Assembly (NCBI GenBank): GCA_038851755.1
Contig: JAWCKR010000001.1
Location: forward strand, 53,637-117,636
Length of the DNA stretch: 64,000 nucleotides
Direction: 5' to 3'
From: Candidatus Hadarchaeales archaeon
GTDB taxonomy: Archaea; Hadarchaeota; Hadarchaeia; Hadarchaeales; WYZ-LMO6
The notes under the pieces are model-generated. The model did not search any database, was not told the DNA's origin, and saw nothing but the letters and a program-made list of their open reading frames with translations. The stretch's first letter is position 1. The number at the start of each line of letters is the position of its first letter. Below, one piece after another: positions 20,757-45,804 of the stretch. The translations under genes were made by a program, and so were the position numbers.

Positions 20757-20766
20757 GGTTTTTAAC
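20757..20766. promoter_or_regulatory. Shared A/T box (GGTTTTTAAC) centred 28 nt from both divergent start codons (purB ATG 20734, purH ATG 20790)
   Basis: 55-nt divergent spacer. The single TTTTTAA element is equidistant from both ATGs; purine-rich runs (ggaggagagagggggagg / aggagaggaagg) flank it on each side. Confidence 0.4.
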
Positions 20767-20789
20767 TTTGGGGAGGAGAGAGGGGGAGG

Positions 20790-26994: not shown

Positions 26995-27096
26995 GACTTT
27001 CAAGGGGGATGAACCCTCCAAGTTTTAACCCTACCGAAATCCCCTCCGAAAAAGCTCACCCTATAATAACCCTACGCGCCAAAAACACCGAAGGAC

Positions 27097-28689: not shown

Positions 28690-28746
28690 CTCGGCGAGCG
28701 ATGCGCAACGCTTCCCTTATAAGTCCACCGGAAAAGTTAGCTGAAG

Positions 28747-29916: not shown

Positions 29917-30676
29917 GCTGGGCAGGGTGGAGAAGTACCTGAGGGAGGGGATGCGAAAGCATCCGCTGCACCTCACGCTGGTGGACCCCGAGAAGACCCG
30001 CGGGGACAAAGCGGGGGAACTCTGCAGGAGGGCGGAGAAAGCGGGGACCTCGGCCATCATGGTCGGGGGCTCCACCGTGTGCTCCACCACCCTCGTGGAC
30101 GAAACGGTGAAGGCCATCAAGAAGGAGGTGGAGCTCCCCGTCATCCTTTTTCCCAACAACCTCTCCGGCATCAGCAGGTACGCCGACGCCATCTTCTTCA
30201 TGTCCCTCCTCAACTCCTCCAACCCCTACTTCCTCATCGACGCGCAGGCCCTGGGGGCTCCCCTCGTGAGGGAGTACGGCCTGGAGGTCCTCCCCATGGG
30301 CTACCTCATCCTGGGACCGGGGGGAACGGCGGGCTTCGTGGGGCAGGCGAGGTTCCTCCCGCTGGAAAAGGCGGAGCTGGCGGCAGCCTACGCTCTAGCC
30401 GCCCAGTACCTGGGGATGCACTTCGTCTACCTGGAAGCGGGCTCGGGGGCCCCCACGCCCGTTCCACCCCAGACCATCTCCGCCGTCCGGAAGTGCGTGG
30501 ACCTCCCCCTCATCGTGGGAGGGGGAATAAGGACGGGAGAGGAGGCCAGGAGGGCGGCGCAGGCCGGGGCGGACCTGGTGGTGACGGGAACGGTGGTGGA
30601 GGAGGGAAGGGTGGAGGAGAAGATAGGGGAAATGGTGGAGGCCCTCCGAAAGGTGCGCCGGGGTAAGGAGCGTTGA
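29909..30676 (+). CDS. Geranylgeranylglyceryl phosphate synthase (PcrB family)
   Basis: ...HLTLVDPEKT...AIMVGGS...YLEAGSGAP...LIVGGGIRTGEEA is a TIM-barrel GGGPS. GTG start overlaps the GGR stop (GTGGTTGA). Confidence 0.9.
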   Translation: MVELGRVEKYLREGMRKHPLHLTLVDPEKTRGDKAGELCRRAEKAGTSAIMVGGSTVCSTTLVDETVKAIKKEVELPVILFPNNLSGISRYADAIFFMSLLNSSNPYFLIDAQALGAPLVREYGLEVLPMGYLILGPGGTAGFVGQARFLPLEKAELAAAYALAAQYLGMHFVYLEAGSGAPTPVPPQTISAVRKCVDLPLIVGGGIRTGEEARRAAQAGADLVVTGTVVEEGRVEEKIGEMVEALRKVRRGKER

Positions 30677-31713
30677 GGGACATCCACACCATCGACCTCC
30701 CCACCAGAGTGGTGGTGGGGAGAAAGGTGATCGAGAAGGTGGGGGAGACCTGCAGGGAGCTGGGCTTGAGGGGGAGGGTCCTGGTGCTCTCTGGTCCCCA
30801 CACCCAAACCAGGGCCGGAAGGAGGGTGATCACCTCACTGGAGGAAGAGGGCTTCGAGCCCAACCTCCTCAGGGTGGAGGGGGAACCCCTGGAGGAGGTG
30901 GAGGAGGAGATCCGGAGGACCAGGCCCTCCTTCCTGGTGGGGGTGGGGGGAGGGAGGGTGATAGACCTGGCCAAGTACTCCTCCTCGAGGGCCCGTCTTC
31001 CCTTCCTCAGCGTCCCCACCGCCGCCTCCCACGACGGCATCGCCAGCTCCAGGGCCTCCCTGCGCAGGCTGGGACCCCTCTCCGTGGACGCACGCACCCC
31101 CCTCGCCATCCTGGCCGACGTGGAGGTGATCTCCCGTTCCCCCCACCGCCTCACGGCGAGCGGGTGCGGTGACCTGATGGCCAAGTTCACCGCCGTGAGG
31201 GACTGGAGGCTCTCCCACCTCCTCACGGGGGAGTACTACGGGGACTACTCCGCACAGCTGGCCCTGATGAGCGCGGAGGTGACGGCGCGCAACTCCAAGC
31301 TGATAGGGGAGGGAAAGGAGGAAGGGGTGAGGGTGGTGGTGGAGGCCCTCATCAGCTGCGGGGTGGCCATGTGCATCGCCGGCAGCTCCAGGCCCTGCAG
31401 CGGCTCGGAGCACTCCTTCGCCCACGCGCTCGAGGAGGTCTCCCCCAACCCCTCCCTGCACGGGGAGAGGTGCGGGGTGGGCACCATCCTCATGGCCTAC
31501 CTCCACGGGATGAACTGGAAGAGGGTGCGCAGGGTCCTCTCGGAGGTGGGAGCACCCACCACGGCGGAGGAGCTGGGAGTGGAGGGGGAGGCGGTGGTGG
31601 AGGCCATGCTCAGGGCCAGGGAAATCAGGCCCGAGAGGTTCACCATCCTGAACAGGAAAAAGCTGAACAAGGAGATGGCGAGGAGGATAGCGGAAAAAAC
31701 GGGAGTGGTCTAG
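30673..31713 (+). CDS. egsA: Glycerol-1-phosphate dehydrogenase [NAD(P)+]
   Basis: 346 aa of the DHQS/glycerol-DH superfamily: ...VLSGPHT..., ...VGVGGGRVIDLAKY..., ...SHDGIAS..., metal ligands H..H. TTG start overlaps the GGGPS stop (TTGA). Confidence 0.88.
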   Translation: MRDIHTIDLPTRVVVGRKVIEKVGETCRELGLRGRVLVLSGPHTQTRAGRRVITSLEEEGFEPNLLRVEGEPLEEVEEEIRRTRPSFLVGVGGGRVIDLAKYSSSRARLPFLSVPTAASHDGIASSRASLRRLGPLSVDARTPLAILADVEVISRSPHRLTASGCGDLMAKFTAVRDWRLSHLLTGEYYGDYSAQLALMSAEVTARNSKLIGEGKEEGVRVVVEALISCGVAMCIAGSSRPCSGSEHSFAHALEEVSPNPSLHGERCGVGTILMAYLHGMNWKRVRRVLSEVGAPTTAEELGVEGEAVVEAMLRAREIRPERFTILNRKKLNKEMARRIAEKTGVV

Positions 31714-32804
31714 GAGGGAAAGCCCGTCTCGGAGAGGAGCTCCCGGGAAGAGTTCCCGAAGACCTCCTTTCTCATCTCCTCGAGCAGGAGGTCAAGGTTC
31801 CTCCCCTCCTTCGCGGAGATGGGGAGGACGGGAAGGGGGAGCCTGCCCAGCACCTCCATCTTCTCCCCCAGCTCCTGAGGGGAGAGGAGGTCCACCTTGT
31901 TGAGGGCCACCAGGATCCTCAGTCCCCTCTCCGAGAGGATCTCCAGACTCACCTTGAGCTTCCTGAGGATCTCCGACATGGGGTCGCTTCCGTCCACCAC
32001 CAGGACCACCAGGTCCGCGGAGTAAATCTCCTCGAGGGCCGCCTTGAAGGCCTCCACCATCCAGGGGGGCAGTCCCTCGATGAAGCCCACGGAGTCCGTC
32101 ATCAGGACCCTCTCGCAGCCCTTCACGGCCCTCGTCCTGACCGTCAGGGTGGTGAACATCCTGTCGTCCACCTCCACATCGGAGCGGGTGAGGGCGTTCA
32201 GGAGGGTGGACTTGCCGGCGTTGGTGTACCCCGCCAGAGCCACCAGCCTGAAACCCCTCCTCCTGCGCTGACCCCTCCTCTTCTCCCTCGACTCCGCCAG
32301 GGCCCTGAGCTTCTTCCTAAGGATGGCCATCCTCCTCTTCACCATGTCCAGGTACATGTTGAGCTCGTACTCACCCCTCCCCCGGAACCCTGGCTGCTCG
32401 ACCGAGAGGAGGTTCCTTATCCTCTCCCTCAGCCTGGGGAATTCGTAGCTGAGCCTGGCGTACTCCACCTGCAGCTTCGCCTCCGGTGATCCGGCCCTGC
32501 GGGCGAAGATCTCCAGGATGAGCTGAAACCTGTCCATCACCTCCACCCCCAGGGCCCTGTTCAGGTTGAAGAGCTGCGAGGGGGTGAGCTGGTTGGCGAA
32601 GATCACGAGCTCCGCCCCCTTCAGCCTCACGAGCTCGGCCACCTCCCCCACCTTCCCCCTTCCTATCTGGAAGGCCGGATCGGCCTCCCTCACCTGCACC
32701 ACCTTCCCCACCACCTCGTGCCCCATGGTCTCGGCCAGCTCCTGCAGCTCCCCCAGCTCGTCCCTTCCGCCCGGCTGCACCCTCTGCACGAGAACGGTAC
32801 GCAT
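31710..32804 (-). CDS. hflX: GTPase HflX
   Basis: N-terminal HflX domain plus G-domain: GYTNAGKSTLLNALT (G1), DSVGF (G3), NKVD (G4); 364 aa. Confidence 0.9.
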   Translation of the reverse strand: MRTVLVQRVQPGGRDELGELQELAETMGHEVVGKVVQVREADPAFQIGRGKVGEVAELVRLKGAELVIFANQLTPSQLFNLNRALGVEVMDRFQLILEIFARRAGSPEAKLQVEYARLSYEFPRLRERIRNLLSVEQPGFRGRGEYELNMYLDMVKRRMAILRKKLRALAESREKRRGQRRRRGFRLVALAGYTNAGKSTLLNALTRSDVEVDDRMFTTLTVRTRAVKGCERVLMTDSVGFIEGLPPWMVEAFKAALEEIYSADLVVLVVDGSDPMSEILRKLKVSLEILSERGLRILVALNKVDLLSPQELGEKMEVLGRLPLPVLPISAKEGRNLDLLLEEMRKEVFGNSSRELLSETGFPS

Positions 32805-32879
32805 CTCAGTAACTGGGTTTCCTGGAGTTTAATCCTGCCCCTCGGCGTCCCTATAAAGTGTACCTCCCAAGGGGGGAAG

Positions 32880-34649
32880 ATGCGGAGGCATGCGCACGCA
32901 GACCCCGGAGGGAAGAGGAAACGCGCCTCTCTCCTCATGGCCGCGCTGACGATGTCCCCCCTCATCCTTTCCCTCTCCCTCCCGCCAGCCGGTGCCCTCC
33001 GCCTCTCCCCCTCCTACACCTCGGTGGTGGTGGAGTTCCAGATCCTGGAGGACAGGACGGTAAGGGTGGGAGAGAACTGCGTCCTCAACCTCCCAAGTTT
33101 CTATTCTTCTATCACCATCAAGCGCACCCTTCCCTCCGAGAACGTGCAGGAGCTGGAGGCCTGGTGCGAACCTGGGGAGCTGAGGCTGGAGAACCGAACC
33201 GTGGAGGAGGGGACCGAGGTGACCCTCACCATCTCGTTCAGCTCTCCCTTCCGGGGGGAGCTGAGGTACGGGCTCTCCTACAGGGCGGCGGGATGGGTGG
33301 GCGGGGCTGGGCCCAAGTACGAGGCGGTGCTCGGGGGGGTGAGGATAGGGGCTGGAGGCTACCCCTACGAGAGCTACCGGATCACCATCAGGGGACCTCC
33401 CGGAAGCAAACTCTTCTGGCACGAGCCCAGGGATGCCGTTCCCTCGGCCGATGGCCTCTCCGTCACCTACTCCACCTCCGTGGGGGCACCAGGAAGCTTC
33501 GGAGGGATGCTCGCCACCTTCTACACCACGCCCGTCTACTACAAGCTCACCCTCACGGAGAGCCTGGGGAACTCCGGTGGGAGCAGCTGCGACCTGGTGA
33601 TGAACCTCCTCCTCTTCAGCGAGGGGAAGGCGCATTTCGCCTCGCTGGTTACCTCCGACCCTTCGCCCGGCAGCCTCTACGCGGACGAGGAGAACAACTT
33701 CTACGCCTCCTTCAGGCTGAAGCTGGCGCCAGGTGAGAACAAACGGGTAAAGGTGGAACTGGTGTGGAAGGTGGAGCTGTACGATCCGGGGATTTCCTCC
33801 GAGAACTCAGGTACCCTCGACGACCTGCCCCAGGGCATGGAGGAGTACACGGTGGAAAGGAAGTGGTGGGAGGTGGAGGAGCTGCGCCCCCTCTCCCTCC
33901 AGCTCACGGGAGGGGAGAGGAACCTCTACCTCCTCTGCCGCGAGCTTCTCCGGTGGATGGACGGCGCCATCGCCTACGTGCCCACCCAGGAGAGGCAGGG
34001 GGCCCTGGAGACCTACCGAAGGGGAGCGGGGGACTGCGACTGCCTGAGCGACCTCCTCATCGCCCTGCTCCGGTCCCTGGGCGTGCCCTCCCGCCTCTCC
34101 TTCGGCTGGACCGCGGAGGAAAACGGGGCTGGGAACCACGCCTGGGTGGAGGTCCATCTCCCGGGATGGGGGTGGCAACCGGTGGACCCCACCTGGTCGA
34201 AGGGCTCCGAGAAGTACCTCTTCAGGATGGACCCCCTCCACCTCTGCAGGGGCTCCAGGGGGCTGACCTCCTCCGACTCCTACCTCTCCAGGGCCTACTA
34301 CGGGGGCTACCCGGAGGTGGGGCTCGAGGAAGTCTCCCTCGTCCTCCTCTCGGAGGAGGAGGCCCTGCAGGAGTTCCTCCTCTCCGCCCGCACCCTTCTG
34401 TGCCTGGCGGAGGAGGGGGGGGAGGACCCCAGGCTGGAGGTGGCCCGGGAGAGCCTCCGGAGAGCCGAGAACGGCGGGGGAATGGAAGAAGCCCTTCGAT
34501 CCCTCTCCCTTTCCCTCTCGGTGCTGAGGGAAAGGGGGAAACCGCTCGAACTCCCCCGCAGGGTTCCCACCTGGGCTCTGGCGCTACTGGCGGGAAGTGC
34601 GGCGGCGCTGGCGTTGGCGCTGGGGCTGGGCCTGAGGAGGAGAGCCTGA
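32880..34649 (+). CDS. Secreted, C-terminally membrane-anchored transglutaminase-like (papain-fold Cys-His-Asp) protein
   Basis: N-terminal signal-like [22 protein letters not shown]; core [29 protein letters not shown]...[22 protein letters not shown] (TGase-like C/H/D); C-terminal TM helix [24 protein letters not shown] 32880 (alternative 32937); TATA-like ctATAAAg at 32861-68. Confidence 0.75.
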
Positions 34650-36008
34650 CCCGACCCTGGGCAACTCCTTCAGGGCCTTCTCCACCAGCTCCCTCGGGTA
34701 CTCGTAGTCCTCCAGCTTCCCCTGCAGGTAGGCGTCCCACGCCCCCAAATCGAGCATGCCATGCCCGCTGCAGTTGAAGAGGATCACCTTTTCCTCCCCC
34801 GTGCGCTTGCACCTCAGGGCCTCGTCCACCACCGCCCTTATCGCGTGGGCCGTCTCGGGGGCGACCACGAAGCCCTCCGCCCTGGCGAAGAGGTTGGCCG
34901 CCTCGAACACCTCGTTCTGGTGGTAGGCCAGGGCACCCACGTAACCCTCCTTGGTGAGCTTGCAGAGGAGGGGGGCGTCACCGTGGTACCTGAGACCACC
35001 CGCGTGGATGGGCGGGGGAACGAAGGTGTGCCCGAGGGTGTACATCTTCAGGAGAGGTGTGAGCCCGGCCGAGTCACCGTGGTCGTAGGTGTAAATCCCC
35101 TTGGTGAGGGTGGGACAGGCTTTGGGCTCGCAGGAGAAGGCCTGCAGCTCGGGCTTTTTCCCCGTGAGCTTGTCCATCAGGAAGGGGAAGAGGAGACCCG
35201 CGTAGTTGCTCCCCCCTCCCACGCACCCGAGGATCACGTCGGGATACTCCCCCGCCAACTCCATCTGTTTCTTGGCCTCCAGCCCCACCACGGTCTGGTG
35301 CAGGAGAACGTGGTTCAGCACGCTTCCCAGGGAGTACTTGGTGTTCCTGTGGGTGACGGCGTCCTCGATGGCCTCGGAGATGGCTATGCCCAGACTGCCG
35401 GGGTTCTGCGGATCCTCCTCCAGAATCCTCCTGCCGTACTCCGTCCTCTCGCTGGGACTGGGAACGCACTCCGCCCCCCATATCTCCATGAGGATCCTCC
35501 GGTAGGGCTTACCCTCGTAGCTAACCCTGACCATGTACACGGTGCACTCCAGCCCGAAGAGCATGGTGGCGAAGGCCAATGCACTTCCCCACTGTCCCGC
35601 CCCCGTTTCCGTGGTCAGCCTCTCCACGCCCTCCTTCATGTTGTAGTAGGCCTGGGCCACCGAGGTGTTCGGCTTGTGGCTCCCCGCGGGGCTCACCCCC
35701 TCCCACTTGTAGTAAATCCTGGCGGGGGTCTTCAGCATGCGCTCCAGCCTGACCGCCCTGTAGAGGGGGGTGGGCCTCCAGATCCTGTAGACCTCCCTCA
35801 CCTCCTCGGGGATGGGTATCCACCTCTCCTGGCTGACCTCCTGCTTGATCAGCTCCCTGGGGAAGATGGGCTCCAGATCCTGTGGGCCCACGGGCTTCCC
35901 CGTGGCCGGGTTGAGGGGGGGATCCAGAGGGGAGGGAAGGTCCGCCTGGATGTTGTACCAGGCCTTGGGCAGCTCCTCCTCGTCCAGCAGGAACTTCACG
36001 CGCTCCAT
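34584..36008 (-). CDS. trpB2: Tryptophan synthase beta-like protein TrpB2 (stand-alone)
   Basis: [25 protein letters not shown]... (TrpB2-type N-terminal extension); PLP-binding ...SHKPNT... and GGGSNYAG. No trpA neighbour. 66-nt convergent overlap with the preceding gene. Confidence 0.88.
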
Positions 36009-36046
36009 CGGCTCTTCTTTTTTTTCACAAAGAATAAAAATGTTCC

Positions 36047-36769
36047 TTAAGGCACAAATCTGTTCTTCCCCAGGGAAAGGAGGAACTCACGGGTCTTGGT
36101 CCCCAGACCCAGCGTCTCAGCCCTCAGGAGGTCCTCCACCCCATCCACGTCCGTGGCCACCGTCTCCGACCGGTAAATCTTGGGCCTTATCCCCGCCCTG
36201 AGGCTCTCCCTCACATGGAGGGGGAAGCTCTCCCCTCCGAACCTGAGGGGGATCACGTCGGGCGGGCGCAGGAACAGGGCGTTGGTCCCCCGGGCGTAAG
36301 AGGGGGCGATCACCACCTCCCTCTCGGAGGAAGCCATCCCCACTATCCCCTCCACATCATCCACCCTGAGGAAGGGAAGATCGGCGGGGAGGATCAGGAC
36401 CTCCCTCGCTCCCTCCCTCACCGCCCTCCCCACCGCCAGCGAGAGGGCCAGGTTCAGCTCCAGCCCGGGCTCCCTCAGGACCTCCGCGCCCATCCCGGAG
36501 GCGAGGCGCAGGACCTCCTCGTCCGGTGAGACCACCACCCTCCTCATCCTCACCCTGGAGAGGACCCCCAGCATGTCAGAAAGCATGCACAGGACCAGTT
36601 CCCTCCTCTCCGGGGGAGTGAGGACCCCCTCGAAGGTGGACTTGGCCCTAGAGAGGGGTTTCAGGGGCAGAACCACCCAGCCTTTTCCTTCCTCCACGGT
36701 CTCCATGAACTCACGGAAGAAGACGCTTTTACCCCTTCGGAGGGATACGTGATTTATTACCGGGGGCAT
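36047..36769 (-). CDS. cofC: 2-phospho-L-lactate (or PEP) guanylyltransferase CofC
   Basis: ...[15 protein letters not shown]...; MobA-like NTP-transferase fold; 240 aa. ATG at 36769; a later in-frame ATG (36706, METVEEG...) is also possible and would remove the head-to-head overlap with cofG. Confidence 0.78.
36753..36760 (+). promoter_or_regulatory. TATA-like box (ATTTATTA) ~26 nt upstream of the cofG ATG (leaderless geometry)
   Basis: gtgATTTATTAccgggggcatcgaggaaagggtATG. Box centre to ATG 36782 is ~25.5 nt. Confidence 0.4.
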
Positions 36770-36781
36770 CGAGGAAAGGGT

Positions 36782-37795
36782 ATGGACCCCCCCCGCAAGG
36801 TGGTGACCTATTCCCTGAACGTCTTCGTGCCCCTCACCAACTTCTGTAGGAACCGATGCGCCTACTGCGGCTTCAGAAGGGAGGAGGGGGAAGCCACCTT
36901 CCTCTCTCCACAGGAGGTCTTCTCCCTCGTGCTAAGGGGGAAGAAGGCCGGATGCTCGGAAGTGCTGCTCACGCTGGGGGAGAGACCCGAGGTCTACCCC
37001 TCAGCGAGGGAGAAGCTCAGGGAGCTGGGCTACCGGACCACCTCCGAGTACCTGGAGGACCTGTGCAGGCACATCCTCAGGTTGGGCCTTCTCCCCCACA
37101 CCAACGCGGGGGTGCTGAGCGAGGAAGAGCTGGGCAGGCTCAGGAGGTACAACGCCAGCATGGGGTTGATGCTGGAGTGCGCCGCCAGGCTCGAGGCCCA
37201 CCGGGAGAGTCCAGGGAAGGACCCGGAGCTCAGGCTGAGGTTCATAGAGAAGGCCGGGAGGCTCAGGATCCCCTTCACCACGGGCCTCCTGGTGGGGATA
37301 GGGGAGAACCGAGAGGACAGGAGGAGGTCGCTGGAGGAGATAAGAAGACTGCACGAGGAGTACGGGCATATCCAGGAGGTCATCGTCCAGCCCTTTTCTC
37401 CCAAGCCAGGGACCCCGATGGGCGGTTTTCCCCCTCCCAGCCCGGAGGAGCTGCTGGACACCGTGAGGATGGCCGCGGAGATCCTTCCCCCAGACATGGG
37501 CATCCAGATCCCCCCGAACCTGGTTCCGGATGTGGTGCCCTTCCTCGAGGCTGGGGCCAACGACCTCGGAGGCCTCTCCGAGGTCACCCCTGACTTCGTG
37601 AATCCGGAGCACAACTGGCCTCCGCTGGGGGAGCTCCGGAGGAAGGTGGAGTCCGCAGGTTTCGAGCTCAGGGAAAGGCTACCCCTTTATCCCAAATACG
37701 CGACCGATGCCTCTTTCATGTCCGAGGAGGTCAGGAAGGTCACCTCCAGGCTGGCCGATGGGGAAGGCTACAGGCGTCCTCTCCAAAAAGATTAA
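36782..37795 (+). CDS. cofG: FO synthase subunit 1 (7,8-didemethyl-8-hydroxy-5-deazariboflavin synthase CofG), radical SAM
   Basis: ...VTYSLNVFVPLTNFCRNRCAYCGF... (CX3CX2C) and the remainder typical of CofG. ATG (MDPPRK) at 36782; the track start is GTG 36749. Confidence 0.9.
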   Translation: MDPPRKVVTYSLNVFVPLTNFCRNRCAYCGFRREEGEATFLSPQEVFSLVLRGKKAGCSEVLLTLGERPEVYPSAREKLRELGYRTTSEYLEDLCRHILRLGLLPHTNAGVLSEEELGRLRRYNASMGLMLECAARLEAHRESPGKDPELRLRFIEKAGRLRIPFTTGLLVGIGENREDRRRSLEEIRRLHEEYGHIQEVIVQPFSPKPGTPMGGFPPPSPEELLDTVRMAAEILPPDMGIQIPPNLVPDVVPFLEAGANDLGGLSEVTPDFVNPEHNWPPLGELRRKVESAGFELRERLPLYPKYATDASFMSEEVRKVTSRLADGEGYRRPLQKD

Positions 37796-37820
37796 GAACG
37801 TGGGAACCAGAGGCTCCAAC

Positions 37821-38975
37821 ATGAAAGGGGGAAGAGCGAGGGGCTCCTCCGCCCTGGAGGGACGGTGGGAGAAAAGGCTGGCGGAGATAGACCCCCTCGT
37901 GGCCGGGGCCCTGGACAGATCCCTCTCCGGCAAAAGCCTGAGTTTGAGGGAGACGGCAGAGCTGCTCAGGACGGAGGGGAGGGAACTGCAGCTCCTCCTC
38001 CTGGCGGCGGACCTGGTGAGGAGAGGGCTCGTGGGTGAGGTCGCCACCTACGTGGTCAACCGGAACATCAATCACACCAACATCTGCACGGGCTCCTGCA
38101 GGTTCTGCGCCTTCCGCCGCCCCCCCTCCCATCCGGAGGCCTACTCCCTCACCCCCCAGCAGCTGAGGGCGAAGGTGGAGGAGGCCGTGAGGATGGGGGC
38201 CACCGAAATCTGCCTGCAGGGTGGTCTCCACCCCGACTTCGGACTGGAAACTTACCTGGACCTCCTCCGCATCATCAGGGGGGTTTCGGAGGAGCTCCAC
38301 ATCCACGCCTTCTCCCCCGCCGAGCTCGACCACCTCTCCCGGAAAGAGGGGATGTCCGTGGATGAGGTGCTGAAACCTCTCAAGGAAGCCGGCCTGAACT
38401 CGGTTCCGGGGACGGCCGCGGAAATCCTGAGCGACAGGGTGAGGGAGATCATCTGCCCGACGAAGATCAAGACGAAGAGGTGGGTGGAAATCGTCAAGAC
38501 CTGTCACCGGAGGGGGATACCCACCACCTCCACCATGATGTACGGAACGGTGGAAACTCCCGAGGAAAGGGCCGGACACCTCCTGCTCCTGAGGGAAATC
38601 CAGAAGGAAACGGGAGGCTTCACGGAGTTTGTCCCCCTTCCCCTGGTTCCCAAGAAGACCGAACTTTATTCCTCGGGCATCACCGGTCCCACCATAAGGG
38701 ACAACCTGAGGACGCACGCCGTGGCCAGGCTGGCCCTGGCGGGTTACATCAACCACGTGCAGGCCTCATGGGTGAAGCTGGGACCGGAGGGGGCCTGCGC
38801 CATGCTGATGGCCGGGGCGGACGACCTGGGAGGAACCCTGTTCGAGGAGAACATCACCAGGGAGGCGGGAGGGGAGTGGGGGCAGGGAATGACCCCCCAC
38901 CAGCTCAGGCTCCTCATCCTGCGGGCCGGAAGGATACCCAGGCAGAGGTCCACCCTCTACGAACTCCTGGACTGA
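37821..38975 (+). CDS. cofH: FO synthase subunit 2 (CofH), radical SAM
   Basis: ...YVVNRNINHTNICTGSCRFCAF... (CX3CX2C); ...LQGGLHPDF...; 384 aa from ATG (MKGGRARG) at 37821. The track ORF from 37707 overlaps the cofG 3' end. Confidence 0.9.
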   Translation: MKGGRARGSSALEGRWEKRLAEIDPLVAGALDRSLSGKSLSLRETAELLRTEGRELQLLLLAADLVRRGLVGEVATYVVNRNINHTNICTGSCRFCAFRRPPSHPEAYSLTPQQLRAKVEEAVRMGATEICLQGGLHPDFGLETYLDLLRIIRGVSEELHIHAFSPAELDHLSRKEGMSVDEVLKPLKEAGLNSVPGTAAEILSDRVREIICPTKIKTKRWVEIVKTCHRRGIPTTSTMMYGTVETPEERAGHLLLLREIQKETGGFTEFVPLPLVPKKTELYSSGITGPTIRDNLRTHAVARLALAGYINHVQASWVKLGPEGACAMLMAGADDLGGTLFEENITREAGGEWGQGMTPHQLRLLILRAGRIPRQRSTLYELLD

Positions 38976-39898
38976 CGGCCCATCTCCTCCAGGACCCTCC
39001 TGGCCAGCCTCCTCCTCTCCGCCAGATTCCTCATCCAGAGGTTGGCCAGATGCACCCTCATCCCCACCTCCTCCACGGAGGGAGCGAACTCCCTGTCCGA
39101 GAGGTGCAGGAAGAAGTGCCCTGCCACCTCCCTGTAGTACTCGGCCACCCCCCTGGGGCTCACCTCGAACCCCAGGGCCTCCATCAACTTCCCCGCGGGA
39201 CCGCTCACCGGGGCCCTCCCCAGAATGGGACTCACCACCCCCACCTCCTCCTTCCTCCTCCTCAGCTCCTCCCGGATCTTCCTGAGGGAGAGGATGGGCC
39301 CTATGCTGGTCACGGGGTTGCTGGGCCCTATCAGCACGAAGTCGCTCTCCCTGAGCGCGCGCAGAACCCCGGGGGCGGGCTCAGCCTCCTCAGAACCCCT
39401 GAACCTCACCCCCCTGACCCTCTCCCTCCCCCCTCGACCCACCCAGAACTCCTGGAAATGCACCCAGCCCCGGGGGGTGAGGATTTCCGTGACCACCCTG
39501 TCGTCCGTCATGGGCAGGACCCTGGCCCTCACCCCCCATCTCCTGCAGAGCTCGGAGGTGAACCGGGAGAGCCTCTTCCCCCTCCTGAGCTCCAGGGTCC
39601 TGAGAAGGCAGGTCGCCCTGTCCCTGTCCCCCAGCCTGAGGAGCTCCTTCACCCCCAGTTCCCGCAGGGCGAGGTGGGTCTCAAAGGTGTCGCCCCTTAT
39701 CCCCCACCAGGTCTCCTCGTTGATGAGACCGGAAAGGGTGTAGACCACGGCATCCAGGTCGGGGGAAACGTGCAGACCCGACACCTCCACGTCGTCTCCG
39801 GTGTTGACCACCACGCACAGCTCATCCTCCTCCACCTCCCTCACCATCCCCTGCAGGAGCTTCGGGGTGCCCGTGCCCCCGGAAAGGAGGGCGATCAT
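38957..39898 (-). CDS. cofD: 2-phospho-L-lactate transferase (LPPG:FO transferase) CofD
   Basis: MIALLSGGTGTPKLLQGM... and the rest of the CofD/YvcK-like fold; 313 aa. Confidence 0.9.
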   Translation of the reverse strand: MIALLSGGTGTPKLLQGMVREVEEDELCVVVNTGDDVEVSGLHVSPDLDAVVYTLSGLINEETWWGIRGDTFETHLALRELGVKELLRLGDRDRATCLLRTLELRRGKRLSRFTSELCRRWGVRARVLPMTDDRVVTEILTPRGWVHFQEFWVGRGGRERVRGVRFRGSEEAEPAPGVLRALRESDFVLIGPSNPVTSIGPILSLRKIREELRRRKEEVGVVSPILGRAPVSGPAGKLMEALGFEVSPRGVAEYYREVAGHFFLHLSDREFAPSVEEVGMRVHLANLWMRNLAERRRLARRVLEEMGRQSRSS

Positions 39899-39921
39899 CT
39901 CCCCAGCTCCCCCTCCCCCCT

Positions 39922-39939
39922 AAAAAGGGTGGGCTTTTT
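39922..39939. promoter_or_regulatory. Palindromic bidirectional promoter element AAAAAG-GGTGGG-CTTTTT between divergent cofD and the HAD gene
   Basis: Arms AAAAAG/CTTTTT are reverse complements. The minus-strand CTTTTTA centre is ~26 nt from the cofD ATG (39898). The plus-strand CTTTTTTT run is ~32 nt from the HAD ATG (39970). Confidence 0.4.
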
Positions 39940-39969
39940 TTCTTCCCCCTCCAGGTATCGGGGACCTGG

Positions 39970-40593
39970 ATGAGGGTAAAGGCTGTGCTCTTCGACCTGG
40001 ACGGGGTGCTGGTGGACTCCCTAGACGTCTGGTACAGGTCGATGAACGAGACCCTGAGCAAGTTCGGAAGGGAGAGGGTGGGGAAGGGGGAGTACCTCAA
40101 GAGGTACTGGGGCTTCAGCCTCTCCAAGAACTTCGAGAGGCTGGGGCTGGGAAGGGAAGCCGTGGACTACTGCCTCTCCCGATACGAGCACCACCTGGAA
40201 GAGATCCAACCTTTCCCCGAAACGAGGGAGGTGCTGGAAGAACTCAGGAGGAGGAGGTTCAAGCTGGCCCTCGTCACCAACACCCCCTCCCGCATGGTGC
40301 AGCGCCTCCTCTCCAAACTGAACCTGAGGGAGTTCTTTCACGCCGTCATCACGGGGGACGATGTGAGGAAGGCCAAGCCACATCCAGACGCCGTGAGAAA
40401 GGCCTGCCGCCAGCTGGAGGTCCCTCCGGAGCAGGCTGTGCTGGTGGGGGACACCAGAAGCGACGTGCTGGCGGGAAGGAGCGCCAAAGTGGTGGTGGTG
40501 GGAGTGGGGGTGGAGGGAGATGTCAGGATCGAGAACCTGAGAGACCTCCTCCTCTTCCTGAGGACCTCAGGAGAAGAGGTCCTTCTCCCTTGA
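39970..40593 (+). CDS. HAD-superfamily hydrolase (phosphatase / beta-phosphoglucomutase-like subfamily IA)
   Basis: MRVKAVLFDLDGVLVDS (motif I DxDG); ...LALVTNTP... (motif II); ...KAKPHPD...LVGDTRSD... (motifs III/IV). Confidence 0.8.
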   Translation: MRVKAVLFDLDGVLVDSLDVWYRSMNETLSKFGRERVGKGEYLKRYWGFSLSKNFERLGLGREAVDYCLSRYEHHLEEIQPFPETREVLEELRRRRFKLALVTNTPSRMVQRLLSKLNLREFFHAVITGDDVRKAKPHPDAVRKACRQLEVPPEQAVLVGDTRSDVLAGRSAKVVVVGVGVEGDVRIENLRDLLLFLRTSGEEVLLP

Positions 40594-41325
40594 CCTCACC
40601 AGCTCCCTGGCTCTCCCCTTTCCCTTCTCGTAGACCGCTCCCCTCACCAGCACCACCGGGGTACCCTCCCCCGCCTCGCCCATCATCAGAACGGCCGCGG
40701 CCGCCAGGGCATCGGCCTGGGCCAGCACCGTGACCTTCAGCTCCTTCCCGTACAGGTCCCTTCTTCCCCTGAGGTCGAGCAGGGGTTTCATTCCCGCCAC
40801 ACCTATGGCCACGCCCAGGCACCCCGTCCTGAAGGCCCTGCCCTGGGTGTCGGAGATGATCACGGCCACCTCCACTCCCAGTTCCTCCCTGATCCTCCTC
40901 CTGATCTTCTCGGCGCTACCGTCGGGGTCCCGTGGGAGGAGGGTCACATGGTCCTTCTCCACGTTGGAGTGATCCACCCCGGCGTTGGCGCACACGAAGC
41001 CGTGCTCCGTTCTTGTGATGAGCACGTGAGAGGACCTCAGGATTTCCCTGGCCTCCCTGAGGATCACCTCCACCTCCCTGGCGTCCTTCTCCAGACGCGA
41101 GGCCAGCCTCTTCGCCGCTTCTGAGGGCCTGATCCTTCTGAGGTCCACGACCGCACCCTCCGCCTTGGAGACTATGGACTGGGCAACCACGAGCACGTCC
41201 CCGGATTGGAGGGAGAGCCCCTGGGAGCGAAGGGCCTTCACCACCAGCTCCCCTATGTCGTCCCCCTTCTTCACCATGGGAAAACCGGGGAGGGGGATCA
41301 CCTCCATCCTGGAGAGTTCGGGCAT
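40567..41325 (-). CDS. cofE: Coenzyme F420-0:L-glutamate ligase CofE (paralogue 1)
   Basis: ...MEVIPLPGFPMVKKGDDIGELV...SKAEG...ANAGVDHSN... typical CofE. ATG at 41325 (MPELSRMEV...) lies ~26.5 nt from the centre of the palindromic TATA at 41343-60 (leaderless geometry). The track start is GTG 41343 inside the palindrome. Confidence 0.85.
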   Translation of the reverse strand: MPELSRMEVIPLPGFPMVKKGDDIGELVVKALRSQGLSLQSGDVLVVAQSIVSKAEGAVVDLRRIRPSEAAKRLASRLEKDAREVEVILREAREILRSSHVLITRTEHGFVCANAGVDHSNVEKDHVTLLPRDPDGSAEKIRRRIREELGVEVAVIISDTQGRAFRTGCLGVAIGVAGMKPLLDLRGRRDLYGKELKVTVLAQADALAAAAVLMMGEAGEGTPVVLVRGAVYEKGKGRARELVRSREKDLFS

Positions 41326-41342
41326 CCTAGCAGTTTCCCACA

Positions 41343-41360
41343 CCGGGATTTTATACCCGG
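41343..41360. promoter_or_regulatory. Palindromic TATA element CCGGG-ATTTTATA-CCCGG shared by the two divergent cofE paralogues
   Basis: 5-bp perfect inverted arms around an 8-bp A/T box. Centre is 26.5 nt from the minus-strand cofE ATG (41325) and ~56 nt from the plus-strand cofE GTG (41408). Confidence 0.45.
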
Positions 41361-41407
41361 CTTAGAACCCGAACACCTTCATAAGGGGGGAGAACCACTT
41401 CTCACCC

Positions 41408-42175
41408 GTGGAAGTGAGGCTGATAGGCATCAGGACACCCCTGGTGAGGCCGGGGGACCATCTCCCCAGCCTGCTCCTGAAGACCCTGAGGAAGGCGGGG
41501 GGGCTGAGGAACGGCGACATCCTGGTCCTCTCCTCCAAGGTGGTGGCCGTCTCCCAGGGAAGGATGGTGAAGCTCTCGGAAGTCAGGCCCAGCGCCAGAG
41601 CCCTGCGCCTCTCCAGGAAGGCCGGCCTGGACCCCTCCTTCGTGGAAGTGGTGCTGAGGGAGGCTGACGCGGTGCTCGGAGTCTCCAGGGGGGCCCTCCT
41701 CACCCTGGTGAAGGGTCTCCTCTGCGCCAACGCGGGGGCGGACCTCTCCAACGCCCCACCCGGTTACGCCATCCTCCTCCCCTCCGAACCGCAGCGGTTC
41801 GCGGAGGGGCTGAGGGAATACCTCAGGAAAGAGGAGGGGGTGGAGGTGGGAATAGTCCTCTCCGACAGCACGGTGCGACCCCTCAGGCTGGGAACGGTGG
41901 GGCAGGCGGTGGGAATCTCCGGGGTGCCGGGGGCTCTCGACTGCCGGGGAAGGCGTGACCTCTTCGGCAGGAGGCTGAGGGTGACGAGAAGGGCCATCGC
42001 CGATCAGCTGGCCACGGCCGGTGAACTCCTGATGGGGGAGGCGGGGGAGAGGATTCCCCTAGTGGTGGTGAGGGGCCTCAGGATAAGGGGCAAAGGTGTG
42101 GGCACTCCTGCAGTGAAACCGGAGGAGTGTCTTTACTCCCAGCTGCTGGCGGGGAAGATCAGGAGGAGCGGCTGA
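41408..42175 (+). CDS. cofE: Coenzyme F420-0:L-glutamate ligase CofE (paralogue 2)
   Basis: MEVRLIGIRTPLVRPGDHLPSLLL...SSKVVAVSQG...CANAGADLSN... is a second full-length CofE. GTG is the first in-frame start after an upstream TAG. Confidence 0.85.
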   Translation: MEVRLIGIRTPLVRPGDHLPSLLLKTLRKAGGLRNGDILVLSSKVVAVSQGRMVKLSEVRPSARALRLSRKAGLDPSFVEVVLREADAVLGVSRGALLTLVKGLLCANAGADLSNAPPGYAILLPSEPQRFAEGLREYLRKEEGVEVGIVLSDSTVRPLRLGTVGQAVGISGVPGALDCRGRRDLFGRRLRVTRRAIADQLATAGELLMGEAGERIPLVVVRGLRIRGKGVGTPAVKPEECLYSQLLAGKIRRSG

Positions 42176-42935
42176 GGGGCTTCAGCTCAACGCCCCTCCT
42201 GTCGGAATGTACCTCAAAGCAAACCTCTTCCAGCAGGGTCCCGGAGAGCTTCTCGCACACCATCAGTTCCCTCCCTCCCGGGGAGGGCTCCTTGCGGAAG
42301 CTTATGATTCCGTCCGCCTTGGAGAGGATGTTGGCCTCGAAGGAGGGGTCCAGGGTCCCGGGAATGAGGGGGGCTATTATGGTAAAGCCCCACTTCCTGC
42401 AGGCCTCGCTTAGCTCCTCCAGGAAGGCCAGGAACTCCACCTTCTCCTCCTCGGAGAAGAAGAGGGCGAAGTCGTTGAGGGGGAAGAAGATCAGGACGGA
42501 GTTGGAGGCCTCCCTCTCCAGGAACTTCGAGAGGTCGGAGAAGATCTTGGACTTGGCATCCCTCACCACCTTCCCATCCGTCTGCTTGAGCCACCTGGCC
42601 AGGTCCACGAAGGACTCGGGGAGTTCCCAGAAGGAGCGGAAGAAGACCTTATGGGAGAACGCCTTGCAGAAGTCCTCCGAGAACTTCCCCCCCACATCCT
42701 GCAGCACGCTCTCCTTGCTGGTGGTGAGGGTGAGATACCAGACACGCTCGGGAAGGACCTGGTTCTCGCGCAGCTTGGAACCGTTGAGTTTCGCCAGCCT
42801 CACGGAGAGGGTGTGGAGAAAGTCCTCCTTCCTGGTCCCTGGTGGCCCCACCAGCACGACCATGGCGCCCACGGGAAGCCCGCCTTGACAGACTTTATCT
42901 AGGGGCTCAAAACCAGTGGGGATCCGGAGGATCAT
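42159..42935 (-). CDS. KaiC/RadA-like RecA-superfamily ATPase domain protein with degenerate Walker A
   Basis: MILRIPTGFEPLDKVCQGGLPVGAMVVLVGPPGTRKEDFLHTL... ; the P-loop reads GPPGTRKE instead of GxxxxGK[ST]. ATG at 42935 is preceded by a purine-rich leader (aaaggaaagaaagtgaaaggaaatgga) and an A/T box (ttataatttaaaa) ~31 nt upstream. Confidence 0.7.
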   Translation of the reverse strand: MILRIPTGFEPLDKVCQGGLPVGAMVVLVGPPGTRKEDFLHTLSVRLAKLNGSKLRENQVLPERVWYLTLTTSKESVLQDVGGKFSEDFCKAFSHKVFFRSFWELPESFVDLARWLKQTDGKVVRDAKSKIFSDLSKFLEREASNSVLIFFPLNDFALFFSEEEKVEFLAFLEELSEACRKWGFTIIAPLIPGTLDPSFEANILSKADGIISFRKEPSPGGRELMVCEKLSGTLLEEVCFEVHSDRRGVELKPLSRSS

Positions 42936-44355: not shown

Positions 44356-45804
44356 ATGACCGTGAAGCTCAGGAGGATAGACGAGGTCAGGTGGGAGATC
44401 CCGCAGGACTACAAGCCCCACATGAGCGTTCCCGCCCGCATCTACGCGGACGAAGAGATGATAAGGGAGATGGGAAAGGACCTGACGCTCGAGCAGGCGG
44501 CCAATGTCTCCTCCCTCCGCGGGATCTACAGGTACAGCATCACCCTCCCCGACGGACACCAGGGCTACGGTTTTCCCATCGGTGGTGTGGCTGCCACCGA
44601 CGCCGACACCGGGGTGATAAGTCCCGGGGGTGTGGGATACGACATCAACTGTGGAGTCCGGCTGATACGTACCGAACTCCACAAACCGGAGGTGGAGCCC
44701 AAGCTCAAGGAGCTGGTGGAGACCCTCTTCAAGAATGTCCCCTCCGGTCTCGGCAGCACCGGGCACGTGAGGCTCACCCCCTCCGAGCTTGACCAGGTGC
44801 TGGAGAACGGGGCGCTGTGGGCGGTGGAGAACGGCTTCGGCTGGCGCGAGGACCTCGAGCGGCTGGAGGAAGGAGGACGCATGGAAGGCGCGGACCCGCG
44901 GAAGGTGAGCGCCGAGGCCAAGCGTCGGGGCTTCCCCCAGCTCGGCAGCCTGGGAAGCGGGAACCACTTCCTGGAGGTCCAGGTGGTGGACAAGATCTAC
45001 CTCCCGGAGGTGGCCAAGGTCTTCGGTCTGGAGGAGGAGGGTCAGGTCACGGTGATGATCCACACGGGATCCCGTGGCCTGGGGCACCAGGTCTGCTCCG
45101 ACTACCTCAGGACGATGGAGAGGGCGGCCCACCAGTACCGCATCTCCCTTCCCGACAGGGAACTCGTCAACGTCCCCTTCACCTCACCCGAGGGACAGGC
45201 GTACTTCTCCGCCATGAAGGGGGCCGCCAACTTCGCCTGGGCCAACAGGCAGATGATCACCCACTGGGTGAGGCAGAGCTTCGAGCACGTCTTCGGAAGG
45301 GGAGCCGAGGCCCTGGGGCTTCACGTGGTCTACGACGTGGCGCACAACATCGCCAAGCTGGAGGAGCACAGGGTGAACGGGGAAAGGAGGAAGGTGGTGG
45401 TGCACAGGAAGGGTGCCACGAGGGCCTTCGGTCCCGGGCACCCCCAGCTCCCCTCCCCCTACAGGGGGGTGGGCCAGCCCGTCCTCATCCCGGGTGACAT
45501 GGGCACGGCCTCCTACCTGCTGGTGGGTACGGATAAAGCCATGGAAGAGACCTTCGGCTCCACCGCCCACGGAGCGGGGAGGCACCTCTCCAGGACGGCC
45601 GCCCTCAGGCAGTTCAGGGGGGAGGAGATCAGGGGCAGGCTGTGGGAGAGGGGGATCTACGTCAGGGCCGCCAAGCTCTCCGTGGTAGCGGAAGAGGCCC
45701 CGGAGGCCTACAAGAGCGTGGACAAGGTGGTGGAGATCACGCACCGGGCTGGCCTCTCCTTGAAGGTCGCCAGGCTCACCCCCCTGGGAGTGGCCAAGGG
45801 CTGA
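44356..45804 (+). CDS. rtcB: RNA-splicing ligase RtcB (tRNA-splicing / 3'-P RNA ligase)
   Basis: 482 aa with full RtcB signature: ...[10 protein letters not shown]..., ...[13 protein letters not shown]..., ...[10 protein letters not shown]..., metal-ligand His/Cys and the guanylylated His region (...TAHGAGR...). Confidence 0.95.

Follow-up and report, generated by a model that had tools for sequence, protein, structure and literature searches.

The canonical archaeal F420 biosynthesis pathway of Methanocaldococcus jannaschii and Archaeoglobus fulgidus relies on five protein families, CofC, CofD, CofE, CofG and CofH, with radical-SAM motifs in CofG and CofH. In M. jannaschii the cof genes are dispersed. 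The bacterial counterparts (fbiA/fbiB, fbiC and fbiD), such as those of Mycetohabitans and the Thermomicrobia, are physically clustered and mostly co-directional, with an FbiC that is a CofG-CofH fusion; they also draw on PEP or 3-PG and encode a reductase, either as a domain of a fused FbiB or as a stand-alone protein. Among archaeal head-to-head genes, a single TATA box is known to drive transcription in both directions in Pyrococcus furiosus (Grünberger et al. 2019, PMC6640164); very short spacers separate the units there, and A/T boxes lie ~25 nt from where transcription initiates. The haloarchaeal gas-vesicle promoters PA and PD are divergent and back-to-back (PMC2241852), comprising two separate, opposite core promoters tens of nucleotides apart that serve functionally related genes and have a defined activator site in common (GvpE UAS).

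The same five families are encoded within 6.1 kb in a 64,000 nt stretch of DNA (hereafter the window) of an uncultured hot-spring Hadarchaeales archaeon, in an F420 biosynthesis cluster that is real but ordinary. Physical clustering is shared with the bacterial systems, while their co-directional order, FbiC fusion, reductases and donor types are not seen here. Unlike in M. jannaschii, all the genes are found at this single locus. The cluster further departs from the canonical pathway in encoding two CofE paralogs that belong to different deep clades and in containing an extra HAD phosphatase gene. The explanation favoured here, with a probability of roughly 0.7, is that the locus would comprise six independent transcription units (cofC, cofG-cofH, cofD, HAD, cofE1 and cofE2) with their own promoters, and that its zig-zag orientation would be inherited from an ancestral cluster to which clade-specific additions were made.

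Gene content and family assignments

The products of cofC, cofG, cofH, cofD and both cofE genes (Table 1) all pass curated family cut-offs (NCBIfam, Pfam), and their enzymatic activities are predicted. CofC scores 157.5 bits against TIGR03552 (cut-off 105; match from residue 32 of the long ORF), CofG 426.6 bits against NF004884 (cut-off 209), CofH 450.9 bits against TIGR03551 (cut-off 374) and CofD 350.9 bits against TIGR01819 (cut-off 257). The CxxxCxxC motif of CofG reads CRNRCAYC, while in CofC the 3PG-diagnostic position (motif RFGGES; position per PMC8764529) is occupied by Gly, which marks the enzyme as 2-PL/PEP-type rather than 3-PG-type. Two deep clades are evident in the CofE tree. 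CofE1 is a type 1 enzyme close to A. fulgidus CofE, with scores of 304.5 bits against TIGR01916 (cut-off 181), 294.6 bits against NF009809 (cut-off 274) and 229 bits against 2PHN. CofE2, which shares 43% identity with CofE1, belongs to type 2 together with copies from the Methanomicrobiales and Methanosarcinales, and reaches 212.1 bits against TIGR01916 but only 191.6 bits against NF009809, below the cut-off for that family.

The original prediction of a compact F420 cluster of head-to-head and tail-to-tail units is supported. Its statement that all five steps are present holds in the sense of CofC, CofD, CofE, CofG and CofH; CofB, the source of 2-phospho-L-lactate, and CofF are absent from the cluster, in which neither these nor CofA were recognised. 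Homology supports the starts of cofC (36706), cofG (36782), cofH (37821), cofE1 (41325) and the KaiC-like gene (42935). The cofH start is backed by alignment with relatives, whereas public gene calls place it at ATG 37758, and the longest ORFs of cofC and cofG, unlike the homology-supported ones, overlap by 21 nt. The possibility raised at the outset as one that would count against the original prediction, that revised cofC and cofG starts would shift the promoters, was borne out. The cofG stop and the cofH start are 25 nt apart, and the two genes form an operon. The exact cofD sequence also occurs in GCA_038849165.1, and database entries identical to CofE1, CofE2 and HAD are labelled Candidatus Hadarchaeales archaeon.

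Table 1. Genes and predicted signals of the F420 cluster and its flanks (window coordinates).
Feature	Position	Strand	Length	Remarks
trpB2, TrpB-like PLP enzyme	34584..36008	-		left flank; NF009057, 745 bits
T5 run	36036..36040	-		7 nt past cofC stop; overlaps trpB2 TATA-like box
cofC, 2-phospho-L-lactate guanylyltransferase	36047..36706	-	219 aa	ATG 36706; longest ORF to 36769; NCBI 219 aa
Weaker A/T box, GTAAAAG	36727..36732	-		22 nt between box and cofC ATG
Strong A/T box, TTTATTA	36753..36759	+		centre 27 nt upstream of cofG ATG
cofG, FO synthase subunit, radical SAM	36782..37795	+	337 aa	NF004884
cofH, FO synthase subunit, radical SAM	37821..38975	+	384 aa	TIGR03551
cofD, 2-phospho-L-lactate transferase	38957..39898	-	313 aa	TIGR01819
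A/T box, CTTTTTAG	39920..39927	-		~25 nt upstream of cofD ATG
A/T box, CTTTTTTTCTT	39934..39944	+		centre 31 nt upstream of HAD ATG
HAD-IA phosphatase gene	39970..40593	+	207 aa	PF13419, 143 bits; antisense between cofE1 and cofD
cofE1, type-1 F420:glutamate ligase	40567..41325	-	252 aa	TIGR01916, NF009809
Strong A/T box, GTATAAAATC	41347..41356	-		centre 26.5 nt upstream of cofE1 ATG
Weaker A/T box, TTCATAA(G)	41378..41384	+		centre ~27 nt upstream of cofE2 GTG
cofE2, type-2 F420_ligase-family paralog	41408..42175	+	255 aa	TIGR01916; GTG start
KaiC/RadA-paralog-like P-loop protein gene	42159..42935	-	258 aa	weak DUF7125 match

Gene order in the Hadarchaeales

From 30.7 to 43.1 kb the coding strand switches at 10 of 12 gene junctions, compared with four of 47 elsewhere in the window (Fisher p = 9e-7). 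The remaining sequence includes an all-minus block (1-20.7 kb) and an all-plus block with a ribosomal-protein operon (43-60 kb). The proposed contrast between alternating and co-directional regions is thus supported by this enrichment, but the alternation begins 5' of the F420 genes, at G1PDH, HflX, transglutaminase (TGase) and TrpB2, and is therefore not confined to the island.

Gene order was compared across approximately 25 Hadarchaeales loci. The clade containing the window has the order HflX(-), TGase(+), TrpB2(-), cofC(-), cofGH(+), cofD(-), HAD(+), cofE1(-), cofE2(+), KaiC-like(-), which is kept in relatives with CofE2 identities as low as 57%. In 19 metagenome loci, where CofD is 54-59% identical, cofE1 instead immediately precedes cofD in the same orientation, usually at a distance of 10-35 nt, and the longer loci mostly continue with cofH-cofG on the opposite strand and then a divergent cofC. 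The cofE and cofD genes are likewise co-directional in nine more distant loci. The common Hadarchaeales cluster (L098-L120 and L095) has the same cofC, cofG-cofH, cofD and cofE1 backbone and orientations as the window clade, the same head-to-head cofC/cofG pair, also present in the Methanomicrobiales, and the same neighbours TrpB2, transglutaminase and HflX, trpB2 being found near the cof cluster across the order. It differs in that the antisense HAD gene of the window clade splits the cofE1-cofD operon and that cofE2 and the KaiC-like gene are attached there; in L095 the HAD slot is occupied by a YaaH family gene and cofE2 is located ~70 kb away.

The comparison shows a probable ancestral Hadarchaeales layout of three units, with cofC divergent from cofG-cofH and the latter convergent with a cofE1-cofD operon. 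Insertion of the HAD gene between cofE1 and cofD, in the reverse orientation, would have split this operon, so that a new cofD promoter would have been needed. A second, type-2 cofE would have been set head-to-head with cofE1, and the KaiC/RadA-like gene tail-to-tail with cofE2. That the HAD event was an insertion is suggested by outgroup comparison. The zig-zag would appear to be historical rather than a purpose-built regulatory device. As the conserved neighbourhood includes non-F420 genes, synteny is no proof of selection on the cluster.

Promoter boxes in the divergent spacers

TATA-like boxes are present in the divergent spacers as originally proposed, although not as one shared symmetric element: each of the three F420 spacers (start-to-start 76, 72 and 83 nt) contains two oriented A/T boxes, one strong (at least 7/8 A/T) and one weaker (6/7), each preceding the start codon of its own gene by ~23-31 nt. 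Every predicted unit would thus have its own oriented box, and the mRNAs, like those of other genes in this genome, probably have little or no leader, with transcription start sites predicted from box geometry. The same box-to-start geometry is common to the F420 genes and to trpB2 (box centre 28.5 nt upstream of the ATG), GGR, HflX, the KaiC-like gene and purH, and therefore points to a genome-wide leaderless promoter layout rather than an F420-specific device. Recognition of a TATA box by the general factor TBP cannot by itself give pathway-specific co-regulation, and the proposed co-regulation of the F420 genes through symmetric TATA elements is not supported.

The cofC box is kept as CTTTTAC in the related loci L083 and L085, while in L083, L085 and L087 an equivalent of the cofG box precedes the ATG by 17-20 nt. 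The cofD box is kept in L083 and L085 and missing in L087, where cofD and HAD have one box between them, and the cofE2 box, which is 23 nt from the GTG, is kept in L083 and L087 and missing in L085. Spacer length tracks box number in these relatives, with two boxes in spacers of 65-83 nt and one in those of 53-58 nt. The single boxes of the L085 cofE1/cofE2 (53 nt) and L087 cofD/HAD (58 nt) spacers are central, 22-27 nt from both starts, and one truly shared box also occurs in the purH pair of the window (56 nt). These resemble the P. furiosus type, for which a start-to-start distance of ~50 nt is expected (PMC6640164), unlike the longer, two-box F420 spacers of the window. The latter resemble gvp PA/PD in their two separate, opposed elements, but no shared specific motif or significant palindrome was found in them. 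Any co-regulation would derive from the closeness of the divergent core promoters, which are merged into one shared box in sister lineages, rather than from palindromic operators.

Alternative readings of the arrangement

The HAD phosphatase, the type-2 CofE and possibly the KaiC-like protein may be functional additions to the F420 pathway, which we consider unlikely. Their positions are fixed in all clade members down to 57% identity, also where the downstream context differs, but those of the unrelated TGase, TrpB2 and HflX are equally conserved. The HAD protein could dephosphorylate 5-amino-6-ribitylamino-uracil 5'-phosphate for CofH, as every phosphatase previously reported for this riboflavin/FO precursor step is a HAD superfamily member and most organisms have no dedicated enzyme assigned (PMC12051542), or could control the phospholactyl donor pool, the source of 2-phospho-L-lactate (CofB) being still unidentified (PMC8498797). 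However, it reaches no NCBIfam equivalog cut-off and resembles a generic phosphoglycolate/sugar phosphatase, its best PDB match being the A. aeolicus phosphoglycolate phosphatase 2NYV, and its closest homologs outside the clade occur in unrelated contexts; those in other Hadarchaeales (49-52% identity) belong to a RIO-kinase <> HAD-Fe-ADH arrangement that has no cof genes in its vicinity. For CofE2, a part in lengthening or modifying the glutamyl tail, or as a heterodimer partner of CofE1, is conceivable, given that the CofE active site is at the dimer interface (PMC10861534) and that type-2 CofE differs in a segment and a C-terminal residue contacting the deazaflavin ring in Af-CofE. Type-2 CofE is, however, the copy adjoining cofC <> cofG in the Methanomicrobiales, and is therefore perhaps simply a normal CofE. 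The KaiC-like protein is a weak KaiC/FlaH-like match (best PDB match SSO2452, 2W0M, E = 1e-7), and its degenerate Walker A motif (GPPGTRKE) argues against such a role. Read-through antisense transcription across the convergent 3' overlaps, causing mutual repression of neighbouring units, is very improbable. The predicted overlaps of cofH/cofD (38957-38975, 19 nt), HAD/cofE1 (40567-40593, 27 nt) and cofE2/KaiC-like (42159-42175, 17 nt) are exact from the ORF coordinates and persist in relatives (4 to 27 nt), and no run of four or more T was found in the 400 nt that follow the stops of cofH, cofD, HAD, cofE1, cofE2 and the KaiC-like gene, the T5 after cofC being the sole oligo-T terminator-like signal of the island. 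Yet factor-dependent termination exists in archaea, the overlap lengths vary and are lost in L088, and overlaps also occur at further convergent pairs of the window (TGase/TrpB2 by 66 nt, G1PDH/HflX by 4 nt), so that 3' overlap looks like genome compaction. Under the favoured explanation, the overlaps and the short back-to-back promoter spacers would be general traits of a compact, GC-rich genome.

The original prediction of a single symmetric or palindromic TATA promoter common to both genes of every head-to-head pair, with this symmetry co-regulating the F420 genes as a set, is improbable. It draws on the near-symmetric binding of TBP to TATA and the bidirectional promoters of P. furiosus (PMC6640164), as well as on the central boxes of L085 and L087 and the plainly unequal strength of the paired boxes in the window. 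Against it, the spacers exceed the length expected for shared boxes, the partner gene has a correctly spaced second box that relatives retain, and the layout recurs at unrelated genes. The palindromes themselves are at chance level: the best inverted-repeat arms in the three spacers (4, 6 and 5 nt) were matched by 99%, 16% and 70% of 2000 shuffles, respectively. The sole 6-nt repeat, AAAAAG/CTTTTT, is formed by the cofD and HAD boxes, and relatives do not retain the 5-nt arms CCGGG/CCCGG that flank the cofE1 box. No specific motif common to the three spacers was evident when their oriented upstream regions were inspected by eye. A point against the favoured explanation is that a lone strong box firing both ways could yield one leaderless and one short-leader mRNA. 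The starts of cofG and cofD are preceded, at 8-14 nt, by GAGG or GGAG strings, which would be Shine-Dalgarno candidates under such a single-box alternative.

The F420 gene cluster and its strand arrangement

A complete cofCDEGH set is documented here in a non-methanogenic member of the Hadarchaeales, and the island is best explained as a conventional F420 gene cluster that would be expressed from six separate leaderless units. The presence of the island is confirmed, with all of the genes called in the original prediction recovered by ORF listing and family scans, and the 19, 27 and 17 nt overlaps proposed for the 3' ends are exact in the ORF listing. Curated equivalog cut-offs are reached by all five Cof families, with bit scores against the NCBIfam equivalogs of 157.5 for CofC (cut-off 105), 426.6 for CofG (209), 450.9 for CofH (374.1) and 350.9 for CofD (257.45), while CofE1 attains 304.5 bits on TIGR01916 (180.65) and 294.6 on NF009809 (274). 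The radical-SAM CxxxCxxC motif is present in the translations of CofG (CRNRCAYC) and CofH (CTGSCRFC), both of which show PF04055 matches. At their longest, the cofC and cofG ORFs would share 21 nt, but public annotations and the family matches alike set both starts further in. The exact cofD sequence is also found in assembly GCA_038849165.1.

Genes of the F420 cluster and their upstream A/T-rich boxes (coordinates use the homology-supported starts; each box is given in the orientation of its own gene, with its position in nt relative to the start codon)
Gene	Coordinates	Strand	Upstream box	Box position	Remarks
cofC	36047-36706	(-)	GTAAAAG, weaker	about -23 to -27	
cofG	36782-37795	(+)	TTTATTA, strong	centred -27	
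cofH	37821-38975	(+)			
cofD	38957-39898	(-)	CTTTTTAG, weaker	about -23 to -27	
HAD-IA hydrolase	39970-40593	(+)	CTTTTTTT, strong	centred -31	
cofE1	40567-41325	(-)	TATAAAAT, strong	centred -26.5	
cofE2	41408-42175	(+)	TTCATAAG, weaker	about -23 to -27	43% identity to cofE1
KaiC/RadA-paralog-like	42159-42935	(-)			top PDB match SSO2452, E = 1e-7

The residue at the 3-PG-diagnostic position of CofC (position according to PMC8764529) is Gly, neither Ser nor Thr, which speaks against a 3PG-type enzyme, and a 2-PL/PEP-type CofC is thus expected. The same Gly is indirect evidence that 2-phospho-L-lactate may be the side-chain donor. The 'Ca. H. archaeon' of that study was considered as a Hadarchaeon and rejected, being a Hydrothermarchaeota MAG. 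Neither a DF420 reductase nor a lactate kinase was recognised within the cof cluster, and Rfam searches at gathering thresholds identified neither riboswitches nor other structured RNAs within the island, the sole match being a tRNA-Lys at 10.4 kb.

In the composition-filtered gene map of the window (GC ~63%), ten of the 12 neighbouring gene pairs from 30.7 to 43.1 kb switch strand, versus four of 47 elsewhere (Fisher p = 9e-7), and the flanks of this zone are long one-strand blocks, the right-hand all-plus block including the ribosomal-protein operon. The alternation proposed for the island therefore exceeds chance. The switching zone, however, begins upstream of the F420 genes, with a G1P dehydrogenase (+), HflX (-), a transglutaminase (+) and TrpB2 (-), where convergent ends also overlap, by 66 and 4 nt. 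As both switching and overlapping ends are seen outside the F420 genes, they represent regional or genomic habits rather than an F420-specific feature. The 66-nt overlap is that between the longest ORFs of the transglutaminase-like gene (32718-34649) and trpB2 (34584-36008). Long spurious ORFs shadow real genes in other frames throughout this GC-rich window, so that raw ORF lists inflate overlaps and gene counts. Just left of the switching zone is an archaeal membrane-lipid gene group (26125-31713), which comprises a UbiA-family prenyltransferase (-), a radical-SAM protein carrying a zinc ribbon of the HMPTM type (27097-28689, +) and a co-directional run coding for a geranylgeranyl reductase, a PcrB/GGGP synthase and an Fe-ADH_2 (G1P dehydrogenase-like) protein.

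Upstream boxes in the divergent spacers

Two A/T-rich boxes are present in every one of the three divergent F420 spacers. Archaeal TATA boxes are centred ~26 nt upstream of the initiation site. The position of the boxes would place initiation at or beside the start codon, suggesting that the F420 gene mRNAs are leaderless. The same geometry is observed at the unrelated genes trpB2 (-28.5), purH (-26.5), the divergent partner of purH (-29.5), GGR (-26.5) and HflX (-25.5), as well as at the KaiC-like gene (-31.5).

The original prediction suggested that the divergent genes are co-regulated through shared palindromic promoters, and this mechanism is only partly supported. The spacers measure 76 nt (cofC/cofG), 72 nt (cofD/HAD) and 83 nt (cofE1/cofE2) from start to start and hold two boxes each, rather than a single shared one. 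The best inverted-repeat arms in the three spacers are only 4, 6 and 5 nt long, and arms at least as long arise in 99%, 16% and 70% of 2000 shuffled sequences, respectively. Conservation of CCGGG/CCCGG and the other arms was not found in three relatives of the same clade (loci L083, L085 and L087), and palindromic promoters were rejected on these two grounds. A repeat search of the spacers returned AAAAAG/CTTTTT only. What stands is that members of this lineage may have a box common to two genes. The two-box layout recurs in L083, L085 and L087, but a single box located 22-27 nt from both starts occurs in the shorter cofE1/cofE2 spacer of L085 (53 nt) and cofD/HAD spacer of L087 (58 nt). The co-variation of spacer length and box number in these sequences is the best internal evidence that each start would need a box ~25 nt upstream, and likewise that a box may be shared in the lineage, yet is not in the three F420 spacers of the window. 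With changing spacer length, core promoters appear to separate into two boxes or fuse into a single one. Shared-TATA bidirectional promoters have been demonstrated experimentally in Pyrococcus furiosus, with two transcription start sites 49-50 nt apart (PMC6640164). The one-box spacers of L085, L087 and the window's purH pair (56 nt) would be of this type, unlike the three two-box F420 spacers.

The purH spacer, between purH (AICARFT/IMPCHase, 20790, +) and a gene ending at 20734 (-), contains a single A/T box, GTTTTTAAC (20758-20769), at distances of 26.5 and 29.5 nt from the respective starts, which makes it the strongest candidate in the window for a bidirectional TATA element that really serves both genes. 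It also contains a 7-nt inverted repeat (CTCTCCT/AGGAGAG), a length reached in only 36 of 2000 shuffles. Side-by-side inspection of the six oriented F420 upstream regions for a specific common motif gave only a generic A/T box followed by a G-/C-rich stretch. No run of four or more T was found within 400 nt past the stops of the convergent partners, an oligo-T run being present after cofC only. Scans for sigma-70 promoters and intrinsic terminators have no bearing on archaeal genes, and the terminator-like matches fell below the shuffle expectation.

History of the cluster layout

The order and orientations of the HflX, transglutaminase, TrpB2, cofC, cofGH, cofD, HAD, cofE1, cofE2 and KaiC-like genes are retained in relatives whose CofE2 is as little as 57% identical, including those with other genes downstream. 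A wider comparison, by a metagenome scan with the CofD alignment, identified 19 loci (54-59% CofD identity) in which cofE1 immediately precedes cofD in the same orientation, the gap being 10-35 nt in most cases. In the longer of these, cofH-cofG follow on the other strand, next to a divergent cofC and with TrpB2 close by, and cofE and cofD are also co-directional in nine more distant loci. The co-directional cofE1-cofD pair in loci outside the clade suggests an ancestral cluster in which cofC is head-to-head with cofG-cofH, the latter being tail-to-tail with a cofE1-cofD unit. What sets the window's clade apart is a HAD gene lying antisense between cofE1 and cofD, together with cofE2 and the KaiC-like gene on the far side. 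Another Hadarchaeales locus (L095) has a YaaH-family gene in the HAD slot and a luciferase-like gene beside cofE1, with cofE2 ~70 kb away beside radA. The head-to-head cofC/cofG pair also occurs in many Methanomicrobiales loci, and cofG and cofC have neighbouring locus tags in Haloferax volcanii (PMC8305020); judging from this distribution, the pair would be older than the ancestral Hadarchaeales cluster. The zig-zag layout was accordingly probably inherited from a three-unit ancestor, and would then have been increased by one antisense insertion (HAD) and two additions (cofE2 and the KaiC-like gene). As such, the cluster provides a worked example of biosynthetic genes kept together without an operon, on an old backbone of head-to-head and tail-to-tail units into which a gene can be inserted antisense.

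The TrpB2 gene (NF009057, 745 bits) and cofC are a few kb apart at most in the majority of the longer cof loci compared among Hadarchaeales (L095, L104, L106, L109, L119 and L120), and are immediate neighbours in the window's clade. We know of no functional link between TrpB2 and F420.

The CofE paralogs, HAD phosphatase and KaiC-like protein

A comparison of cofE2 (41408-42175) and loci L003-L082 places the two CofE paralogs in two deep clades. CofE1 groups with 2PHN in the type-1 clade, which contains the A. fulgidus CofE and the copies from cofE-cofD operons, and is of the canonical type, with the DTxGRxFR segment conserved as DTQGRAFR and, in LVRSREKDL near the C-terminus, the Arg that stacks on the deazaflavin (R234 of Af-CofE). 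CofE2 exceeds the cut-off of TIGR01916 (212.1 versus 180.65 bits) but not that of NF009809 (191.6 versus 274), and lacks the canonical features, the segment being DSTVRPLRLG and the C-terminal Arg being replaced by P-x-x-C-L; it falls in the type-2 clade. The NAGxDxSN, KDL[YF]G and MGE family motifs are retained in both types. In the type-2 clade, which includes Methanomicrobiales, Methanosarcinales, Asgard, Methanomethylicia and Bathyarchaeia sequences, the deazaflavin-contacting parts of Af-CofE (segment G153-C155 and residue R234; PMC10861534) are replaced by DSxxxPLRLG and a conserved C-terminal P-x-x-C-[LM]. Several further Hadarchaeales assemblies carry the two paralogs on one contig, which was confirmed for GCA_009619155.1. 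The presence of two deep CofE clades side by side in one genome, differing at deazaflavin-contacting residues of the A. fulgidus structures, is of more use to F420 specialists and could bear on the setting of tail length.

The HAD protein (PF13419, 143 bits) has intact catalytic motifs in its translation (FDLDGVLVDS, LVTNT and VGDTRSDV) and is most like phosphoglycolate or sugar phosphatases, and reaches the equivalog cut-off of no NCBIfam family. The homologs closest to it beyond the clade (49-52% identity) occur in unrelated contexts or in a HAD-Fe-ADH unit divergent from a RIO kinase, and no cof genes are found near them in the two Hadarchaeales lineages and one Methanophagales genome examined. 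A conserved F420-linked gene was rejected on this basis, and together with the equivalog result this leaves a pathway role unproven. 5-Amino-6-ribitylamino-uracil is the substrate of CofH. The reported phosphatases yielding this compound in E. coli, B. subtilis and A. thaliana are all HAD enzymes (PMC12051542), and the source of 2-phospho-L-lactate is still to be found (PMC8498797), so that a role of the HAD protein in the F420 pathway is conceivable. It is a weak candidate for one of the unassigned phosphatase steps feeding F420 and riboflavin synthesis.

Were the clade-specific remodelling adaptive, the HAD protein would be a dedicated supplier of 5-amino-6-ribitylamino-uracil to CofH or an editor of the phospholactyl-donor pool, the type-2 CofE, with its differing deazaflavin contacts, would have a role apart from CofE1 (tail elongation, another acceptor or a CofE1/CofE2 heterodimer), and the degenerate KaiC-like protein would regulate the set. 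This combined reading is considered improbable, and a conventional cluster is preferred, with some potential for new biology limited to the HAD gene inside the cluster and the pair of CofE proteins from two clades.

The best PDB match of the HAD protein is a HAD enzyme of A. aeolicus, but this is not one of the A. aeolicus phosphatases of the riboflavin step, which are IMPase-like and histidine-family enzymes. In L090-L093 (8001-9625), the nearest HAD homolog and an iron-type alcohol dehydrogenase form a two-gene unit with a 4-10 nt overlap, divergent from the RIO-type kinase. This Fe-ADH and the G1P dehydrogenase-like gene of the window are not closely homologous, and a simple local relocation of HAD from the lipid operon is thus unsupported.

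Similarity of the KaiC-like protein to SSO2452 (2W0M) is full-length, while its KaiC, FlaH and DUF7125 matches are weak and all below cut-off. Its Walker A motif, GPPGT[RSK]K[ES] in all five orthologs (the window, L083, L085, L087 and L088), is degenerate relative to the canonical GxxxxGK[ST], suggesting an NTPase that is inactive or non-canonical. The cofE2 gene of a distant Hadarchaeon (L096) is head-to-head with a genuine radA rather than a KaiC-like gene. Downstream of the cluster in the close relative L085 (12937-15777), the RtcB RNA ligase is 946 aa long and contains an intein (Intein_splicing and LAGLIDADG matches), while the window RtcB (44356-45804; 482 aa) is intein-free.
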